Source of the DNA: an uncultured virus (IMG/VR IMGVR_UViG_3300027396_000015)
Lineage: Duplodnaviria > Heunggongvirae > Uroviricota > Caudoviricetes
Virus record (IMG/VR): IMGVR_UViG_3300027396_000015
Length of the DNA: 20,000 nt
Strand: one strand, 5' to 3'
Shown in pieces: positions 7,960 through 15,398 of this stretch. The position numbers and the translations under genes were made by a program. Each line of letters starts with the position of its first letter. Positions within the stretch are counted from its first letter, which is position 1. The notes beneath the pieces were generated by a model. That model ran no database searches. It worked only from the letters and a program-made list of their open reading frames with translations, and was not told the DNA's origin.

Positions 7960-8964
7960 ATGTTTAAAAAAGTTGCGTGTTTTACAGACATACACTTTGG
8001 ATTAAAATCGAACTCTAGTACACATAATCAGGACTGCGAAGAATTCGTAGATTGGTTTATTGCTGAGGCTAAAAAGGAAGGATGTGATACTGGCATCTTC
8101 CTAGGCGATTGGCATCACAATCGAAACAGTCTTAATATGTTGACTATGCACAGTTCAATCCGCTGTTTAGAAAAACTGGGCAAGGCATTTGATCAGTTTT
8201 ACTTCTTTCCAGGCAATCACGACTTATACTATAAGGATAAGCGTGATGTACACTCAGTTGACTGGGGCAGACATATTCCAGGAGTAACTGTTATCAGCGA
8301 AATTACTACCATAGATGATGTTACACTAGTTCCTTGGTTAGTAGGCGATGAGTGGAAAAAGATGGAAAAGTTAAAAAGTCGTTATGTGTTTGGACACTTT
8401 GAACTTCCGTTGTTTATGATGAACGCAATGGTGCAGATGCCGGACCACGGTGAGTTACAGGCCAGCAACTTTAAGAACCCTGAATATGTATTCAGCGGGC
8501 ACTTTCATAAACGCCAAGCAAAAGAAAATATTGTTTACATTGGTAATGCGTTTCCGCACAACTATGCAGATGCTTGGGACGACGACAGAGGCATGATGAT
8601 TTTAGAACACGGAAAGAAGCCTGTGTATAAAGTTTGGAACGATGCTCCTAAGTTTAAGACTGTAAAACTGAGTCAACTTATTGACGAATCCGAAACACTA
8701 ATTCTTCCTAAAACATATCTACGTGTAGGTATTGATATTGATATTAGTTTCGAAGAAGCCAGTTTTATTAAAGAAACATTTATGGCTCAGGAAAATATCA
8801 GAGAACTTACATTAATTCCTGAGAAGAAAGACGTAGAAATTAACACTAACCTTGATGTCCAACAGTTTGAAAGTGTAGATCAAATTGTTAGTAATCAAAT
8901 TGCCAGCATACAAAGCGACACATACGATCCTAAAGTATTACTCGCGATTTATAATAACCTATGA
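7960..8964 (+). CDS. gp47: Recombination endonuclease subunit, Mre11/SbcD-like (T4 gp47)
   Basis: Metallophosphoesterase motifs DIHFG, LGDWHH, GNHD, GHFE and SGHFH. Confidence 0.93.
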   Translation: MFKKVACFTDIHFGLKSNSSTHNQDCEEFVDWFIAEAKKEGCDTGIFLGDWHHNRNSLNMLTMHSSIRCLEKLGKAFDQFYFFPGNHDLYYKDKRDVHSVDWGRHIPGVTVISEITTIDDVTLVPWLVGDEWKKMEKLKSRYVFGHFELPLFMMNAMVQMPDHGELQASNFKNPEYVFSGHFHKRQAKENIVYIGNAFPHNYADAWDDDRGMMILEHGKKPVYKVWNDAPKFKTVKLSQLIDESETLILPKTYLRVGIDIDISFEEASFIKETFMAQENIRELTLIPEKKDVEINTNLDVQQFESVDQIVSNQIASIQSDTYDPKVLLAIYNNL

Positions 8965-10742
8965 TTAGAATAAAAGACTTAACAGTTAAAAATTTCATGA
9001 GTGTAGGTAATGCTACACAGGCAGTAGATTTTGGTAAAGAACAACTTACCCTCGTCTTAGGCGAGAACTTGGACCAAGGAGGTGACGATTCCGGCTCTCG
9101 AAACGGCACGGGTAAGACCACTATCGTAAATGCACTAAGTTATGGGCTTTACGGACAGGCGTTGACTAACATTAAGAAGGATAATCTTATTAACAAGATT
9201 AATTCTAAGAATATGTTAGTTACTGTTGAGTTTGAAAAAGACGGACGTTTATACAGAATCGAACGTGGGCGCAAACCTAACATATTAAAATTCTATGTCG
9301 ACGAGCAAGAACAAGAAAATGCAGATGTAGATGACGAAGGTCAAGGCGATAGTCGAGAAACACAGAAAGATATTGATGAATTACTAGGCATGAGTCATGA
9401 TATGTTCAAGCACATTGTTGCATTGAACACTTATACTGAGCCATTTCTTAGTATGCGGGCCAACGACCAGCGTGTAATTATTGAACAATTACTAGGTATT
9501 ACACTTTTAAGTGAAAAAGCAGAAACTCTCAAAGAGCAAGTACGTATTACTAAAGAAGAAATTACACAGGAAAGTGCTAGAATTGATGCTGTAAAGAAAA
9601 GCAATGATAAAATTCAAGAAAGCATCGACAGTTTAAAATTAAAACAAGCGGCTTGGCAACGTAGTAAAGATGCAGACATTAGTAAAATACAAAAAGCCAT
9701 AGATGAGCTGGCTGGCGTGGATATTGATGCAGAAATTGCACAGCATGAAAAGTTAAAAGTATATGACGAACAAGCGGCTAGAATTAAAAGTCTTAACAAA
9801 GAAAAGGCTACCTTAGAAACTGCTGTGATGCAGGCTGATAAAACTGTACGAAAGTATCAGAAAGAAGTAGAACGACTAGAACACAAGACTTGTCCTGCGT
9901 GTGAACAAGAACTGCACGATCATAAACATGAAGAAATGATTAAAGCGGCAGAGAAAAATCTCGCTGATGCAGATACATACTTGTCCAAGGTAGCGGGAGA
10001 TCTCGAGTTGATTATAAAGGAACTTGAGTCTATTGGAGACATCAACGGTCGTCCACAGACTTTCTATGACACACTAAACGAAGCCTATAATCATAGGTCT
10101 AATTTAGATAGCCTTGCTGTACAATTAAAAAATAAACAAGAAGAACGCGATACTTACCAAGAGCAGATTACTGAATTAGAGAATACTGCACTTCAAGAAG
10201 TAGCGTGGGACTCTGTTAACAGTTTAAATCTAATGAAAGAGCATCAAGAGTTTTTATTAAAACTGTTAACTTCAAAAGATTCGTTTATTCGTAAGAAGAT
10301 TATAGATCAAAATCTTGCTTACTTGAATAACCGTCTGACTTATTACCTTGATAAGGTGGGTCTACCTCACACCGTTGTATTCCAAAATGACCTAACGGTA
10401 GAAATAACCCAACTCGGGCAGGACTTAGATTTTGATAACCTGTCACGAGGAGAAAGGAATCGCTTAATCTTAGGATTGTCGTGGGCGTTCCGCGATGTCT
10501 GGGAATCATTATACCAGAACATTAATCTCTTATTCATAGATGAACTTATCGATAGCGGTATGGACGCCAATGGCGTTGAAAACTCTCTGGGTGTTTTGAA
10601 GAAAATGGGCAGAGAACGTAATAAGAACATCTATCTAATTTCTCATAGGGATGAATTAGTGGGTCGAGTGAACAACGTGCTCAAGGTAATAAAAGAAAAC
10701 GGGTTCACAAGTTATGCTAACGACATAGAAGTTTATGACTGA
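8961..10742 (+). CDS. gp46: Recombination ATPase subunit, Rad50/SbcC-like (T4 gp46)
   Basis: KNFMS start, Walker A NGTGKTT, long coiled coil with CPAC zinc hook, LSRGE signature, LFIDE Walker B and ISH. ATGA overlap with gp47. Confidence 0.93.
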   Translation: MIRIKDLTVKNFMSVGNATQAVDFGKEQLTLVLGENLDQGGDDSGSRNGTGKTTIVNALSYGLYGQALTNIKKDNLINKINSKNMLVTVEFEKDGRLYRIERGRKPNILKFYVDEQEQENADVDDEGQGDSRETQKDIDELLGMSHDMFKHIVALNTYTEPFLSMRANDQRVIIEQLLGITLLSEKAETLKEQVRITKEEITQESARIDAVKKSNDKIQESIDSLKLKQAAWQRSKDADISKIQKAIDELAGVDIDAEIAQHEKLKVYDEQAARIKSLNKEKATLETAVMQADKTVRKYQKEVERLEHKTCPACEQELHDHKHEEMIKAAEKNLADADTYLSKVAGDLELIIKELESIGDINGRPQTFYDTLNEAYNHRSNLDSLAVQLKNKQEERDTYQEQITELENTALQEVAWDSVNSLNLMKEHQEFLLKLLTSKDSFIRKKIIDQNLAYLNNRLTYYLDKVGLPHTVVFQNDLTVEITQLGQDLDFDNLSRGERNRLILGLSWAFRDVWESLYQNINLLFIDELIDSGMDANGVENSLGVLKKMGRERNKNIYLISHRDELVGRVNNVLKVIKENGFTSYANDIEVYD

Positions 10743-10962
10743 CGACATCAAAGACGACACTCACGACCAGTTAGTTAAAGCGTTTATCGAATATTCACGC
10801 TGGAACGAACGATTTGAACGTTATGGATACTTTGCATCCAGTCAACAGGCTCGCGAATATCTGCGAGACATACGCGATTTATGCACAAAAAGGCGAATGG
10901 AAATACAGGCACAGCGGCGATTAAACAAAAAGGCCAAAACGACACAAGATGATTCAGAGTAA
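10735..10962 (+). CDS. Small helical hypothetical protein (75 aa)
   Basis: ORF overlaps the gp46 stop and fills the gap to the next gene. No family recognised. Confidence 0.65.
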   Translation: MTDDIKDDTHDQLVKAFIEYSRWNERFERYGYFASSQQAREYLRDIRDLCTKRRMEIQAQRRLNKKAKTTQDDSE

Positions 10963-10977
10963 CTGGTATATATGTGC

Positions 10978-11421
10978 ATGTCGTGGCACTATCAAAATGT
11001 ATTAGTTGAAGAAATACCCGAAGGCGTTATAGGCTTTGTTTATCTCATCACTAACAACCAATCTGGACAGAAATATATAGGCAAAAAACTAGCACAGTTT
11101 AAGCGTACAAAACCACCACTCAAAGGCAAAAAACTCAAAAGACGTAGCACAGTAGAAAGCGATTGGCGCGAATATTGGGGCTCATCTGAGAGATTACAAG
11201 CAGACGTCCACGCACTAGGTCCAGAAAAATTCACAAGAGAAATACTTTATTTTTGCAAATCCAAGGCAGAAATGTCTTATCTAGAGGCAAGAGAGCAGTT
11301 CGAACGTAGGGTTTTAGAAACTGACGACTACTATAACGGTATTATTAATGTTAGAGTAGGCGGATCAAATATACTAAGACAGCGTTTATTAGAACAAGCA
11401 CAGGCAAAATCAAACGGTTAA
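10978..11421 (+). CDS. Stand-alone GIY-YIG family nuclease (Seg-like catalytic domain only)
   Basis: Motifs GFVYLITN...KYIGKK, YWGSS, FTREIL, YLEAREQ and YYN. The start is probably the second Met (10978, MSWHYQN) rather than 10972. Confidence 0.8.
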   Translation: MSWHYQNVLVEEIPEGVIGFVYLITNNQSGQKYIGKKLAQFKRTKPPLKGKKLKRRSTVESDWREYWGSSERLQADVHALGPEKFTREILYFCKSKAEMSYLEAREQFERRVLETDDYYNGIINVRVGGSNILRQRLLEQAQAKSNG

Positions 11422-11423
11422 TG

Positions 11424-11860
11424 GCTAGCGCAGGCTAAATTCGTGCGCTCTATACCTGGACCTCGGGTCGCAGGGACGGAATTCTCTTGCCGTTAAGAGT
11501 ACTCAGCAACTATCCTTAACAGGACGAGGATCGCAAATTGCCGCGGTTTTGCTGTTTTAAGAAGAAAAGGCTCAAGGAGAGGAGAAAAACCTCACGTAAG
11601 CAAGTATGATAGCGTATATTTGTTTACCGCCGTTGTGATAAGACGGAGCTCGTGGTACCGGACAACCGCCACTGTAATGCTCTAACGCTGTGTGACATTG
11701 TGCAACTCGGATAATGTTTTTAACTTTGCCCTGTGCGGGCGAAGTGTGACTGAACAATCTGGATAATGCTAAAGTGCTTCGCACTTAATAATGCTCTATA
11801 ATTAAAATAAAACAAATAGTTCGAGCGAAGCGATGAACAGATGAACGCAGTGAATCTTGA
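11424..11860 (+). ncRNA. Candidate large structured non-coding RNA (or structured cis-element) of unknown family
   Basis: The only long non-coding gap in the window. About 48% GC over 11461-11760 by manual count, whereas the other intergenic spacers are very AT-rich. At least 10 stems and 2 potential pseudoknots. G-U wobble pairs favour the + strand. Confidence 0.6.
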
Positions 11861-11864
11861 AGTA

Positions 11865-12095
11865 TTAGAAAAAGGGTAATCCTGATTTCTTAGTAGTTTC
11901 TAAATTCTCTTTGATAATATTCGATATGATTTCACGATCTTCATAGGATAATGCAAATGCGTCATCTATGGTGATGCTACCTCTCATATACCAGCACAAT
12001 TTAAACAATTCGGTTCTTATGGACTTTGCTTCTTTATCTAGCCCCTCAACTACTCTTAGTGCGTCTTCGAGTGTTAGGCTGAAGAGCTTTACGCG
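11865..12095 (-). CDS. gp51-like baseplate hub/tail assembly chaperone reading frame, probably expressed as a -1 frameshift extension of the gp26-like gene
   Basis: Not in the ORF track. Open frame RVKLFSLTLEDALRVVEGLDKEAKSIRTELFKLCWYMRGSITIDDAFALSYEDREIISNIIKENLETTKKSGLPFF*. The only in-frame ATG is at 11987. The frame is -1 relative to the upstream gene and begins at a slippery site. Confidence 0.7.
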   Translation of the reverse strand, partial: RVKLFSLTLEDALRVVEGLDKEAKSIRTELFKLCWYMRGSITIDDAFALSYEDREIISNIIKENLETTKKSGLPFF

Positions 12096-12955
12096 AAAAA
12101 ATTTGAAGCGTCTAGTCCTATAGGAGTTTCAAATTCAGCAGGAGCACCTTGAGCTTGCTCTTCTGCTGTAGTTTGAATTTTAAACGACGGCATTTGAAAC
12201 TTAATGCGTTGTTTTTCCAAGTGATCGATGATTTTAGTATAAAATTCTTTGTCAGCATTATCGATAAACTCTTTAATAAATGCTGGATCACTTACTTCGC
12301 CTTCAGGCGTAACAACTTTGACTAATCCATTGGCCACTGATCTCATGGTAATTTCAGTTAATGCTTTAAAACTCTTATTAAATTGAGCAATCTTTTGTTC
12401 TTCTGTTAGTTCTTGACTGTTAACAATAGTAAAAATTCGTTGTTCTTCTAAACTTTTTAAAGAACTTTTAGTAAATTCTTCATAGGATAATGGACGTAAA
12501 AATGCAGTTAATTCATCATTAATTCGAACTTCTGGATCAAATGTAGCATCTAACAGTTTATCTAACGCTAATCGTAGGTCAGTAGTATACGTTTTTGTTT
12601 CTGATATGTTTGGAATAGCAATATCTACATCAATTTGTTCGCCATATGTTGCAATACGAATAGCAATTAATATAGCATCAATATCAATACTAGGAATTGC
12701 CCAGGCATTTTTAATATTAGGCATACAACTTTGAATAACATCAACAGTACTTTGACCATTTAACAATGCGTCTGGTGTTTTAATAGAAATTTCATCTCTA
12801 GCAGTCATAGCATAAACTGGAAACTCCATATTTTGTGTAGGTTCTAACGTGCCTGGTGGATAAAAATTACCAGAACTAGGCAAACGAACATAGAGCTTCG
12901 GTTGTCTAAAGTACTTCTTCAACGGGTTTTGCGGTACTGCTACTTGATTTTCCAT
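12089..12955 (-). CDS. gp26: Baseplate hub assembly protein, T4 gp26-like
   Basis: PKLYVRLPSSG...VYAMTARDEI...IDIDAILIAIRIATYGEQID and the C-terminal ..NFF ending resemble the T4_baseplate/gp26 family. GGAG RBS and a perfect TATAAATA upstream. Confidence 0.75.
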   Translation of the reverse strand: MENQVAVPQNPLKKYFRQPKLYVRLPSSGNFYPPGTLEPTQNMEFPVYAMTARDEISIKTPDALLNGQSTVDVIQSCMPNIKNAWAIPSIDIDAILIAIRIATYGEQIDVDIAIPNISETKTYTTDLRLALDKLLDATFDPEVRINDELTAFLRPLSYEEFTKSSLKSLEEQRIFTIVNSQELTEEQKIAQFNKSFKALTEITMRSVANGLVKVVTPEGEVSDPAFIKEFIDNADKEFYTKIIDHLEKQRIKFQMPSFKIQTTAEEQAQGAPAEFETPIGLDASNFFA

Positions 12956-12969
12956 GTGTTTTTACTCCA

Positions 12970-12977
12970 ACTAAATA
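12970..12977 (+). promoter_or_regulatory. Late promoter variant ACTAAATA (tape-measure gene)
   Basis: TAAATA core in the intergenic region upstream of 13029. Confidence 0.6.
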
Positions 12978-12996
12978 ATATACTGCTGTGTCATTA

Positions 12997-13004
12997 TATT
13001 TATA
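12997..13004 (-). promoter_or_regulatory. T4-type late promoter TATAAATA (gp26-like gene)
   Basis: Exact T4 late consensus on the minus strand, 41 nt upstream of the ATG at 12955. Confidence 0.8.
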
Positions 13005-13028
13005 TACGCAGTTTTTGACGGAAAAATT

Positions 13029-15398
13029 ATGTCAGTAAAAGCCATAGTTCCTGGAGTAGGAACAGTTATTGTAGAAAACGCTGCCGAAGACTCGACTCTT
13101 AGACAGATACTTGCGGCAATTAATAAAAGCGGAATACCTGCAGGCGGAAAACCTGGTGCCACGCCCGGCGGTGGCGGTGGCGCAGGAGACAATGATGCTC
13201 GGGCTGAGCAAATGCGAAAAGGTGCTGAAACTGAAAAAGAATATAAGGCACGAATGAAACTAGCAGGAGATGCTGTATCTCTTGGTGCAGACTCATTTGC
13301 TAAAACATTTTCAAATACTACTCCTACAATTAAAGATTTTTCTGGTGTACTGGCACAAATGCCCGGCGCAAACATCAAGGGCGTTAGCGATGTAGTTCAG
13401 CAATTTGGCGGAACATTAGAAGATCAAATACAAATTTTTAGAACACTAAGTGGATCTGGTATTGACTTAGGTGATTCATTGTTACAAGCACAACTATCAG
13501 CAGGTGAAGCAAGACTTCCTTTAGAAATTTTTGGAAAAACTGTAAAAGAAAACAGCCAATCGCTGGCTATGGCGTTTGGATCTGCCACTGCTGGTGCTAC
13601 TAAGTTTGCTGAAACACAAGGCAAGTTTATGGCACAGAGCGGTCAAAAATTTGCCGCGCTTGGATTTAGTATGGATGAACTAGCAACATATAATGCTAGT
13701 TACATGGAACAACAACAACGCAACGGTCGCTTGTCAAAGATGAGCACTGATGAAATTGTTGCAGGTCAAGAAAAATATAACGAAGAACTAGACAGACTAT
13801 CAAAGGCAACAGGATTATCTAGACAACAGATAGATGAAGCCAATAAATCATCTCAACGTGATGCTAGAATGAAATTAGCATTAGGCAAATTAGATGCAGA
13901 CCAACAGGCGGCAGTTAATGCTAAAATTAAACAGTTAGAACAACTAGATCCAACTGGTAAAATGGCCGCAGGCTTTAAAGATATTATTGCTGGCGGTGGT
14001 GTTGCTGTAACTGCTGAAGCAAGACAATTTGCATTGACAATGCAAAGTGCAGGCGTTGATGCTAGTAAAATGGGCCGAGAAATTTTTAACGGATCTAAGT
14101 CTGCTGTCGACGATATGAACGCTGGATTTAGTAAAGCCGCCAAAGCCAGCGAAAATATCAGCGAAGGCGAAAGAAGAACAGCCGCCGCAATGGCAACTAT
14201 GGGTCAAATGACTCCAATGTTAGGTAAAGCAGTATTACAAGGCATGGGCGACTCGCAAAAAGCAGCCGCAATGGCCAAGGAAGAACAAGAAAAACGTCTG
14301 GCTGCATCTAAGACAGACCCAACAAGAGCAGTAGCAGGTTTAGATCAGACATTAACTAATGTACAAAATTCATTTAAGAAGTCATTTATTGAAAGTGGCG
14401 TACTAGATTTAACCGCAACTGGATTAAAATCGGCGGCAAGTGGTGCAGAAGCAGCCGCTGAAAAATTTGCTAAGTTAGATCCAGCCGCAAGAATTCCAGT
14501 ATTGTTTGGAGCCGCACTAGGTAAAGAGATTGCAGATGCTCTTATTAAGGCTGGTGTAGGTACTGCAATAGGTTATGCTGGTGCAAAAGCCGCTGGCATG
14601 GATTATAAAAAATATGAAGAAATGAAAAAAGGTGGCGGTGAACCTAAAGGTGGTGAACCTAAAACTCCTAAAGGAGAACCAGTTAAGCCAGGAGCAGCCG
14701 CAGAAGCCGCAGAAGATGTTGCAAAAGCCGGAAAACTAGAAAAAATTGTTTCCACTATAAAGAATCCATGGGCCTGGGCAATAGCAACAACAGCAGGATT
14801 AATCATTTATAAAGATGAAGTTGTTGATTTTCTAACTCCAGACTTTTTAAAGACAAAAACAAATGCGGCCGCTAATGCACAAACGGAAAATACTAAAAAT
14901 ACAGTACCTGGTGCAGAAATACCAAAAGCAAATGCACCAAAACCTCCAGAGACAAATGCTGCCGAACCTGTAGCAAAGTTAAATCAAGAAGTTAATGCAC
15001 TTAAAACGGCATTAAAGGATGTAGATTATTCAAAATTAATGTTCCCAGAGGCAGTGGGTTCAAGTATCGATGCAGGTGTTATTAAATTAAAAAATCTTAG
15101 AGAAGAAATTACTACAACAACTAGTGCATTTAAAGATTTGAATAACACTAATTTAGATCAACTGAATAATAACATTAATAAATTAAGCGAAACCATCAAG
15201 AGCTCTATGAAGTCTGAGCAAAAAGAAGGAGCACCTGGAAACGTAAAAGTATCCGATGCGTCCAGCAAAGAGATGGTAGACCTGTTAAATCAGTTAAATA
15301 TGAATATGAGTCAATTAGTCTCACATCAATCAGACGCTGTGGATTATTTGAGCAAGACAGCCAAATACACTAGACAAACTTCAAATAATAGTGCATAA
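13029..15398 (+). CDS. Probable tail tape-measure protein
   Basis: 789 aa, Ala/Gly/Lys/Gln-rich and mostly helical, with hydrophobic stretches (IPVLFGAALG; WAWAIATTAGLIIY). Adjacent to the gp26-like chaperone gene. Confidence 0.6.
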   Translation: MSVKAIVPGVGTVIVENAAEDSTLRQILAAINKSGIPAGGKPGATPGGGGGAGDNDARAEQMRKGAETEKEYKARMKLAGDAVSLGADSFAKTFSNTTPTIKDFSGVLAQMPGANIKGVSDVVQQFGGTLEDQIQIFRTLSGSGIDLGDSLLQAQLSAGEARLPLEIFGKTVKENSQSLAMAFGSATAGATKFAETQGKFMAQSGQKFAALGFSMDELATYNASYMEQQQRNGRLSKMSTDEIVAGQEKYNEELDRLSKATGLSRQQIDEANKSSQRDARMKLALGKLDADQQAAVNAKIKQLEQLDPTGKMAAGFKDIIAGGGVAVTAEARQFALTMQSAGVDASKMGREIFNGSKSAVDDMNAGFSKAAKASENISEGERRTAAAMATMGQMTPMLGKAVLQGMGDSQKAAAMAKEEQEKRLAASKTDPTRAVAGLDQTLTNVQNSFKKSFIESGVLDLTATGLKSAASGAEAAAEKFAKLDPAARIPVLFGAALGKEIADALIKAGVGTAIGYAGAKAAGMDYKKYEEMKKGGGEPKGGEPKTPKGEPVKPGAAAEAAEDVAKAGKLEKIVSTIKNPWAWAIATTAGLIIYKDEVVDFLTPDFLKTKTNAAANAQTENTKNTVPGAEIPKANAPKPPETNAAEPVAKLNQEVNALKTALKDVDYSKLMFPEAVGSSIDAGVIKLKNLREEITTTTSAFKDLNNTNLDQLNNNINKLSETIKSSMKSEQKEGAPGNVKVSDASSKEMVDLLNQLNMNMSQLVSHQSDAVDYLSKTAKYTRQTSNNSA

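Follow-up and report, generated by a model that had tools for sequence, protein, structure and literature searches.

A conserved ~440-nt RNA with the Polynucleobacter-1 motif at its 5′ end lies behind a single-domain GIY-YIG nuclease gene in a T4-like phage

We analyzed a 20,000-nucleotide (nt) stretch of DNA, referred to here as the window, which forms one part of a 270-kb IMG/VR virus entry (IMGVR_UViG_3300027396_000015; completeness ~71%) from an uncultured member of the Caudoviricetes. The analysis concerned a small GIY-YIG nuclease gene (10978..11421, + strand) and the ~440-nt region directly behind it (11423 to ~11860, + strand). The window contains T4-type genes recognized by Pfam, encoding baseplate gp25, gp5, and gp53, portal gp20, the prohead protease, and the gp47/gp46 recombination nuclease pair, and the nearest cultured relatives by portal protein are jumbo T4-like phages with ~50% identity. 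As an earlier note made from the sequence alone had observed, the only long gap between open reading frames (ORFs) in the window, 11422-11864, starts directly after the nuclease stop codon. This region was found to be non-coding and conserved in more than 100 distinct viral contigs. Judged by comparison of the aligned loci, it is a real, conserved, covarying RNA of ~440 nt on the strand of the nuclease gene, partly known as Rfam family RF01718 and for the rest an extension of that motif.

The nuclease ORF is open from 10972 to 11421 (149 aa) and encodes 147 aa from the ATG at 10978, the start favored here because homologues begin MTWxY. Pfam matched SegE_GIY-YIG (PF19835) over residues 5-125 of the 149 (E 3.5e-34, 118.1 bits; cut-off 25) and detected no second domain. 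In PHROGs the protein matched phrog_447 (E 2.5e-37), and homing-endonuclease families were matched too. Six residues in the GIY/YIG, Arg, Glu, and Asn columns (Y24, Y35, G37, R89, E105, and N122) were invariant in a 31-sequence alignment, and we take these to be the catalytic residues of the nuclease. An AlphaFold model built from 31 homologues (pLDDT 88.3) consisted of the GIY-YIG catalytic domain and one C-terminal helix. Its best structural matches in the PDB were to the I-TevI catalytic domain, with a probability of 0.92-0.94 but weak E values of 0.16-0.19, and a PDB sequence search with the nuclease gave nothing useful. With PF19835 as the sole domain and only a C-terminal helix added by the model, the earlier description of an ORF of ~147 aa that is a catalytic GIY-YIG domain and nothing else holds.

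The 270-kb record contains one PF19835 gene; genes for PDDEXK_15 or Endonuclease VII were not found in it, the record being ~71% complete. GIY-YIG genes of the PF19835 family were present in 535 cultured phage records, mostly of cyanomyoviruses. The closest cultured homologues, from Methylophilales phage Melnitz (62% identity) and Synechococcus phage S-SRM01 (45%), have different gene neighborhoods, and searches of these two phages for RF01718 and for the pattern of the 3′ core found neither.

The first part of the RNA (11423..11557, + strand) was identified by cmscan as RF01718, named Polynucleobacter-1, with 119.3 bits against a gathering score of 37 (E 8e-26) and model positions 1-141 of 141 covered. 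This was the sole Rfam 15 match in the whole window, and one copy is present in the 270-kb record. A permissive scan of 11300-12200 (E≤10) added only three matches, all far below their cut-offs. No Rfam family matched the ~300 nt 3′ of the RF01718 part, and ARAGORN detected no tRNA or tmRNA in the non-coding stretch of the window. RNAalifold analysis of 56 full-length sequences recovered the Rfam helices of the 5′ domain with compensatory changes, covariation being seen in P1-P5; the four helices that had been drawn here by eye are supported by both the Rfam alignment and this covariation. The Infernal scan against Rfam that the earlier note had suggested thus assigned the first 135 nt to RF01718, so that the RNA is not wholly undescribed, a possibility which that note had raised. 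In Weinberg et al. 2010 (PMC2864571), the tabulated Polynucleobacter-1 motif has 141 positions, 16 sequences, and 1 RefSeq match, in a Polynucleobacter genome, with the taxa given as "Burkholderiales, fresh water/estuary." That paper was the only one in which our literature search found a mention of Polynucleobacter-1 or RF01718. A search for GIY-YIG-linked RNA in T4-like phages returned nothing relevant; the supplements of a 2023 survey of viral structured RNAs (PMC10690425) could list the region.

The conserved block extends well beyond the catalogued motif. A pattern scan with the 5′ domain detected at least 120 viral contigs, and a second pattern, taken from the part downstream of the motif, gave a further 119 loci, the two scans overlapping in contigs. 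Sufficient flanking sequence was available at 72 other loci, and in 70 of these the 300 nt after the motif shared 68-83% identity with the window. An nhmmer profile made from the entire block matched 208 of 250 collected sequences, comprising 122 full-length RNAs (class A), 23 with the 3′ part only (class B), and 63 partial ones. Counted as distinct sequences, the cores number 106 at less than 94% identity (87 of class A and 19 of class B); the full-length class-A RNAs number 101, and their median length is 447 nt. Class B shares the same core from AAGGCAA onwards and carries a different 5′ domain of ~95 nt; 11 class-B loci had no Rfam match at all. Since the ~300 nt that follow the motif show strong covariation, as described below, RF01718 is on this evidence the 5′ domain of a much larger RNA of ~440 nt. 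The lengths of the 101 distinct full-length class-A RNAs were spread over the three values modulo 3 (46/30/25), and the 70-aa minus-strand ORF of the window in this region has internal stops in relatives, indicating that the region is non-coding. A blastn search with 11400-11900 against 50,697 phage records gave no match. Ten matches of the 5′ pattern in prokaryote genomes were discarded as chance matches because cmscan assigned none of them to RF01718.

The structure of the 3′ two-thirds was built from RNAalifold and mutual information (MI) and was counted on an independent 41-sequence MAFFT alignment. In this alignment, 86.5% of cells were paired, compared with 73.9% in shuffles (0 of 500 reached the observed value) and 38-45% when partners were slid. 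Compensatory changes, on both sides of the pair, were present in 48 of 66 pairs, and the covariation score was 0.384, whereas shuffles gave 0.167 and slid partners no more than 0.09. Furthermore, G-U greatly exceeded A-C in the 13-bp stem (286 vs 21) and was far commoner in the well-aligned helices. This excess fits an RNA transcribed from the + strand, in agreement with the strand that had been read earlier from the G-U pairs.

All elements of the 3′ part are on the + strand. The core common to class B begins at 11558..11595 with an A-rich linker containing the conserved AAGGCAAAA and a small hairpin H1 (11579-82/11590-93), which is weakly supported (56-79% paired) and lies in a length-variable region. 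Hairpin H2 (11596..11627), the 13-bp stem 11596-608/11615-27 noticed earlier, had changes on both sides in 12 of its 13 pairs and was 88% paired. Its loop (11609-11614) forms pseudoknot PK1 with 11686-11691, in which 6/6 pairs were compensatory and 95% of cells paired. A near-invariant CCGCCGUUG segment follows at 11628..11645, and 11633-11636 within it form pseudoknot PK2 with the loop 11662-11665. PK2 was paired in 100% of cells with 3/4 pairs compensatory (UA 26 / CG 15, and others), and MI singled out the pair 11634-11664 (UA 75 / CG 29). A CCGT/ACGG stem drawn earlier for this segment gives way to PK2, since it was 75% paired with 1/4 pairs compensatory and 11633-36 pair with 11662-65 instead. 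A possible long-range helix to GAYGG at 11475-79 showed one-sided changes only. The three-tier hairpin H3 (11646..11682) contains the invariant GGUACCGG...ACCGCC; its helices 6-8 were 97-99% paired, with 5/11 pairs compensatory. Hairpin H4 (11723..11745), ACTTTGCCC/GGGCGAAGT, was 85% paired with 3/9 pairs compensatory. Both H3, seen previously as a nested GAGC/GTGG/CGG hairpin, and H4 had been proposed by eye and are supported by covariation.

Toward the 3′ end, 11772..11818 holds the variable hairpin H5 (11772-86) and an A/U-rich linker whose length differs between loci; this part aligned poorly and was 48-80% paired. Two stems of the earlier note, GAGG/CCTC (H1) and AAGTGC/GCACTT (H5), thus stand with weaker support than the others, both being in length-variable regions. 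Hairpin H6 (11819..11838) has a conserved GAGCGA(A)AGCGA top, in which the inner 2 bp were paired in 100% of cells and were both compensatory, and its outer stem covaries as well (UA 20 / CG 17). The top of H6 may adopt a GA/GNRA hairpin, with tandem sheared G-A pairs flanking the 2-bp stem and a GAA/GAAA loop. The conserved block ends with a terminator-like hairpin H7 and a short U run (11839..11860), in which 8/8 pairs were compensatory; in the window itself two pairs of H7 are mismatched, and a simple terminator scan made no call there.

Two repeat units flank H4. Unit A (11692..11716, + strand) reads GUGUGAC-N8-AACUC-GG-AU-A-A-U-G, and unit B (11746..11768, + strand), 52-54 nt after unit A, reads GUGUGAC-N6-AAUCU-GG-AU-A-A-U-G. 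Positions 11692, 11703-04, 11709, 11710, 11713, and 11715 of unit A covary with unit B by identity. At 11709/11761, for example, 57 of 106 sequences had A/A and 49 had G/G, and 11713=11765 and 11715=11767 behaved in the same manner. A four-base signature with 13 variants was equal in both units at 183/184 loci, and the sole exception looks like a regex slip. The signature was also mirrored in a divergent RNA behind a PD-(D/E)XK nuclease gene (locus L293). No third covarying site was detected in the core (best MI 0.15 vs 1.00 for the twin position) or in the 5′ domain. Because 11709 shares at most 0.15 bit with any other column of the core or 5′ domain, lineage effects do not explain the mirroring.

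RNAalifold proposed a Watson-Crick helix between units A and B with 97% of cells paired. This helix was rejected: it showed no compensatory change, and with the GC, GA, or AC variant of the signature two of the six pairs would be lost with nothing to compensate. Pairing between the variable middles of the units was not beyond chance (longest helix 3.47 vs 3.35 ± 0.10 with shuffled partners). In the ±3-kb flanks, own-signature 7-mers outside the units were not enriched relative to shuffled signatures in either sense (52 vs 48 ± 6) or antisense (39 vs 41 ± 6) orientation; on this basis the window's two additional GGATAATG copies are regarded as chance occurrences. Across the genome, complements of the own 7-mer numbered 15 and 20 per strand, which agrees with the counts of 20 and 15 for the 7-mer in the sense strand. 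No nuclease residue tracked the signature base 11709 (MI 0.20 vs a null maximum of 0.27), and comparison with 11713 and 11715 gave only C-terminal, lineage-like signals. Ordinary base pairing, as far as these alignments go, does not explain the same-letter repeats. Three readings remain, namely two sites for one partner, RNA of unit A on template DNA at unit B, and a parallel like-with-like helix. One locus (L083) has lost ~190 nt of the RNA core in a clean internal deletion that begins within the 13-bp hairpin and stops shortly before unit B, and may be a natural knock-down variant.

We also determined how consistently the nuclease gene and the RNA occur together. According to tblastn, most loci have a GIY-YIG homologue whose end lies 0-64 nt ahead of the RNA. 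Among 131 assessable loci, the GIY-YIG gene was located at most 120 nt upstream of the RNA in 109, 121-1300 nt upstream with another ORF between in 13, and more than 1300 nt upstream in 1. A PD-(D/E)XK nuclease gene (PF24608; phrog_244, "RusA-like Holliday junction resolvase") took the upstream position in 5 loci. Two loci had the GIY-YIG gene elsewhere, probably as an artefact of start estimation, and one (L158) had no nuclease. The upstream anchor of this gene order is the gp46-like SbcC/Rad50-type recombination ATPase gene (8961..10742, + strand; Pfam AAA_23 and SMC_N), whose relatives (60-100% identity) provided a sample blind to the RNA. Of the best 80 such loci, 57 had at least 1500 nt after gp46. 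GIY-YIG and RNA followed gp46 in 52 of the 57, PD-(D/E)XK and RNA in 2, and PD-(D/E)XK with a divergent RNA seen by eye in 1 (L293); in one further locus with GIY-YIG the contig ends before the RNA could show, and the remaining contig, ending 1581 nt after gp46, had neither. The slot was hence occupied by a nuclease in 56/57 loci (53 GIY-YIG and 3 PD-(D/E)XK). Because nearly all gp46-sampled loci carry both, the nuclease and the RNA are fixed features of the clade, not sporadic passengers. In view of the in-place swap and the resolvase-like annotation, the GIY-YIG and PD-(D/E)XK proteins may be interchangeable core structure-specific enzymes. The nearly universal adjacency to a small nuclease gene also makes some coupling between nuclease and RNA likely, at least at the level of co-transcription.

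Transcription of the locus was surveyed in RNA libraries, 15 of which contain part of the stretch. The four best riverine metatranscriptomes are assembled contigs, which carry no RNA ends, strand, or expression level. They cover the entire area, at low depth; the deeper contigs run from ~10355-10374 to 10678-11421, and one RNA-library contig, from a single run, ends at 11421. No promoter-like site was found on the + strand in 10600-11423, and a terminator-like site is present inside the 5′ domain at 11527-11550. A separate observation is that contig depth in all four assemblies was 32-101 over 10341-10689 compared with 3-8 around it, starting at 10341-10374 inside the gp46-like gene. This depth, with adapter letters directly at 10360 and 10374 in two runs, suggests an abundant RNA end there, and the T4 late promoter TATAAATA had one match, elsewhere in the window, and none near 10341-10689. 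In addition, two to four TTAGGCACA-like words, or else one AGGCAAC word at ~10 nt, stand upstream of divergent and class-B RNAs (L204, L158, and L144; class-B loci such as L175). These words could be promoter or protein-binding elements.

The explanation that we favor, at about an even chance, is an independent, co-expressed, trans-acting phage RNA next to a fixed single-domain GIY-YIG gene. The GIY-YIG gene is a fixed gene at the end of the gp47-gp46 recombination block of this T4-like jumbo phage from fresh water. The ~440-nt RNA gene follows it immediately and in the same orientation, with RF01718 as its 5′ third and the pseudoknotted non-Rfam part as its 3′ two-thirds. Given a gap of only 0-64 nt and no promoter-like site, the RNA would probably be transcribed as part of the nuclease operon. 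It would then be released as a stand-alone trans-acting RNA or ribonucleoprotein (RNP) scaffold, and would act neither as a guide for the GIY-YIG enzyme nor as a 5′ leader. Since the two ~25-nt units must match letter for letter, they may be twin docking sites for one putative partner, either a dimer or two nucleic-acid copies. An independent large phage RNA had been the alternative offered in the earlier note, and it fits the conserved, covarying RNA of ~440 nt.

Several observations weigh against this explanation. The fold of the single sequence was no better than that of shuffles (z -1.53 for the + strand and -1.64 for the - strand); taken alone, the listed stems would thus be no more than expected by chance, and the case for the RNA rests on comparison, not on thermodynamics. 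The RNA region was not enriched in the four metatranscriptome assemblies, where its depth of 0-13 was like that of the flanking genes, but as contigs without ends, strand, or level, these data neither support nor exclude a stable RNA. A partner of the twin units was not found in the RNA, the ±3-kb flanks, or the 270-kb genome. Insertion of genes between gp46 and the nuclease does not separate the nuclease from the RNA, and the near-universal adjacency would also agree with a nuclease and RNA that function as a pair or with a cis-acting 3′ untranslated region (UTR). Finally, the table of Weinberg et al. 2010 (PMC2864571) rates the motif "y" as RNA, "y" as cis-regulatory, and "?" as a switch.

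The last of these points bears on the alternative that survives best, although we consider it unlikely: a cis-acting element of the nuclease operon mRNA, that is, a long 3′ UTR or a riboswitch-like 5′ domain plus terminator that would govern how far a potentially toxic nuclease transcript is stable, processed, or read through. The distance of 0-64 nt from the nuclease stop codon, the failure to find an upstream promoter-like site, and the terminator-like site within the 5′ domain are consistent with such an element, as is the published cis-regulatory rating, and the contig ending at 11421 in a single run is a weak hint in the same direction. However, known 3′ stabilizers need far less than 440 nt, two pseudoknots, and a large number of invariant unpaired bases. 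The RNA also does not appear to be a 5′ leader, because in other loci the terminator-like hairpin comes before the next gene, which lies 290-370 nt beyond the motif and on either strand, and in the window no + strand gene follows, the next gene being on the opposite strand. The RF01718 copy here is situated behind a nuclease gene in a T4-like phage with no regulated gene after it. Moreover, the RNA is kept behind unrelated inserted ORFs (L006 and L018) and without any nuclease in L158.

Distinctly unlikely is a second alternative, in which an independent conserved RNA gene served as the conserved target at which free-standing homing endonucleases are parked, different families having invaded one site. 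The replacement of one homing-endonuclease family by another at the same site is known in T4-type phages, and the presence of two nuclease families in one slot would be in line with this. The naming of the family after T4 SegE, the PHROGs matches to homing-endonuclease families, and the other contexts of the same GIY-YIG family in cultured phages can be read likewise. The distribution, however, is not sporadic, as an RNA with an empty slot was seen in 0/55 RNA-bearing gp46-sampled loci. Further points against homing are that the nuclease gene is single-copy in the genome and that both nucleases are without a DNA-binding extension. The resolvase-like annotation of the PD-(D/E)XK protein (phrog_244), together with a genome in which no Endonuclease VII or PDDEXK_15 gene was found, fits a core structure-specific nuclease.

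In a nuclease-RNA ribonucleoprotein, the RNA would bind the adjacent nuclease and aim or control it, and each of the twin units would serve as a short programmable address that pairs with matching DNA or RNA. A nuclease gene upstream of the RNA in 130/131 assessable loci, the integrity of the pair when genes are inserted between gp46 and the nuclease, a nuclease without a DNA-binding domain of its own, and a four-base signature that differs between phages in 13 variants would all suit such a complex. We nevertheless regard it as improbable. Unrelated folds, GIY-YIG and PDDEXK_15, share the slot before the same RNA, 13 loci have an ORF between nuclease and RNA, and the GIY-YIG homologues of Melnitz (62%) and S-SRM01 (45%) have no RNA. 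No nuclease column tracks 11709, and complements of the own signature were enriched neither in the flanks (39 vs 41 ± 6) nor in the genome. The proposal that the RNA guides or partners the GIY-YIG enzyme, the central suggestion of the earlier note, is therefore not supported, given the PD-(D/E)XK swaps, the inserted ORFs, the nuclease-less locus, and the RNA-less homologues in cultured phages. The guide-like variable segment that might have been expected was also not seen in the alignments: no terminal segment is hypervariable, both ends being conserved structure (P1 at the 5′ end and the terminator-like hairpin at the 3′ end), and the variable parts are loops, the A/U-rich linker, and the mirrored four-base signature.

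A bolder view of the mirrored units, which we also hold to be improbable, is that they work together as a pair in a way for which natural RNAs offer no described example. They might form a parallel like-with-like helix (A-A, G-G, U-U, and C-C at 7 consecutive positions, 11709-15 with 11761-67), or they might be twin programmable address elements that direct the neighboring recombination nuclease, or R-loop formation, to matching DNA. If true, such a pair (parallel helix or address elements) would be an RNA-programmed DNA transaction in T4-like phages. ColE1 RNA II is an origin primer RNA that forms a persistent R-loop. An RNA-DNA element of this type, in which nascent unit A would pair with the template DNA at unit B so that the units have to be identical, would account for same-letter covariation without a third site and for the position beside recombination and replication genes, but we consider it very unlikely. 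The cumulative GC skew has only a shallow, uninformative local minimum near the locus, and the identical run is just 8-10 nt.

Further features were noted in and around the locus. A small ORF of 75 aa (10735..10962, + strand) between gp46 and the nuclease gene had no match in Pfam or PHROG searches, and a comparable small ORF also precedes the PD-(D/E)XK gene in locus L050. On the other side, the RNA is bounded by a small conserved ORF (11865..12008, - strand), which encodes 47 aa with a TTG start here and 72-96 aa in relatives. Its homologues in L005, L204, and L162 end in ...ENLETTKKSGLPFF, the C-terminus being conserved, and neither Pfam nor PHROG gave a family match. A 135-aa ORF (12971-13378, - strand), antisense to the start of a 789-aa gene (13029-15398), has no family match and is probably spurious. 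In some relatives (loci listed: L075, L006, L018, L143, and L320), radical SAM/SPASM genes are located between gp46 and the nuclease gene, and ORFs of 257-296 aa without a known family lie between the nuclease and the RNA. A cassette on the opposite strand, inserted ahead of the baseplate genes on the far side of the RNA, recurs in L075, L018, L162, L163, and L209; it encodes a DUF6614 protein, an arginyl-tRNA-transferase-like protein (weak ATE_C match), a 167-aa protein, and a ~346-aa protein. Outside the window, at ~239.7-258.7 kb of the record, ARAGORN detected a cluster of 32 tRNA genes as well as a tmRNA-like gene whose tag has 23 residues. The tRNA cluster includes a gene with a CTA anticodon that was called tRNA-Pyl, a possible amber suppressor.

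Polynucleobacter-1, a 141-nt Rfam motif without an assigned function since 2010 and with one bacterial genome match, thereby gains a biological home: a pseudoknotted RNA of ~440 nt shared by virtually all members of a large clade of uncultured T4-like phages from fresh water, fixed beside a recombination nuclease. Its presumed role as a leader is corrected, and a sister class with another 5′ domain is added. Letter-for-letter mirroring over 13 variants is a type of covariation that standard RNA structure tools ignore, and points to a partner or an unusual fold. The size of the RNA suits cryo-electron microscopy.

Among known systems, group I introns with GIY-YIG ORFs have the catalytic domain in common with this locus, I-TevI being the best structural match, and likewise place a structured RNA in a T4-type phage. 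Here, in contrast, no host gene is interrupted and the ORF stands in front of the RNA, not in an RNA loop. The Intron_gpI model gave no match at its gathering score or at E≤10, and the flanking ORFs are separate genes. IscB and TnpB with omega RNA (HEARO) are similar in that a nuclease gene lies beside a large structured RNA. The nuclease here differs from them in having a GIY-YIG fold, with no RuvC/HNH or RNA-binding domains, and its family also occurs without the RNA. Moreover, unlike an omega RNA locus, this one has no transposon end and no terminal guide segment. T4 SegB and SegE belong to the same catalytic domain family (PF19835), and segB lies in the T4 tRNA cluster, beside genes for stable RNAs, much as the nuclease gene does here. 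Unlike the Seg type, however, the nuclease is interchangeable with a PD-(D/E)XK nuclease and fixed in the clade; sporadic presence among close relatives was not observed, a nuclease occupying the slot at 56/57 gp46-sampled loci. A separate DNA-binding module was likewise not seen in a protein that Pfam covers at residues 5-125 of 149 and to which the model adds one C-terminal helix.

Covariance models of GOLLD, ROOL, HEARO, and OLE gave no match in the window or in the 11 class-B loci. GOLLD and ROOL are associated with phages. According to the account in PMC12286853, they are likewise large, highly structured, and ORF-less, with pseudoknots and many conserved unpaired bases; the RNA here differs in being smaller, in its fixed place in T4-like genomes, and in its two mirrored repeat units. 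The closest likeness in sequence is to Polynucleobacter-1 (RF01718), whose full model the window matches and whose habitat, fresh water and estuary, is alike. As tabulated in PMC2864571 it is a motif of 141 positions, probably cis-regulatory, whereas here it appears as the 5′ domain of a phage RNA of ~440 nt.

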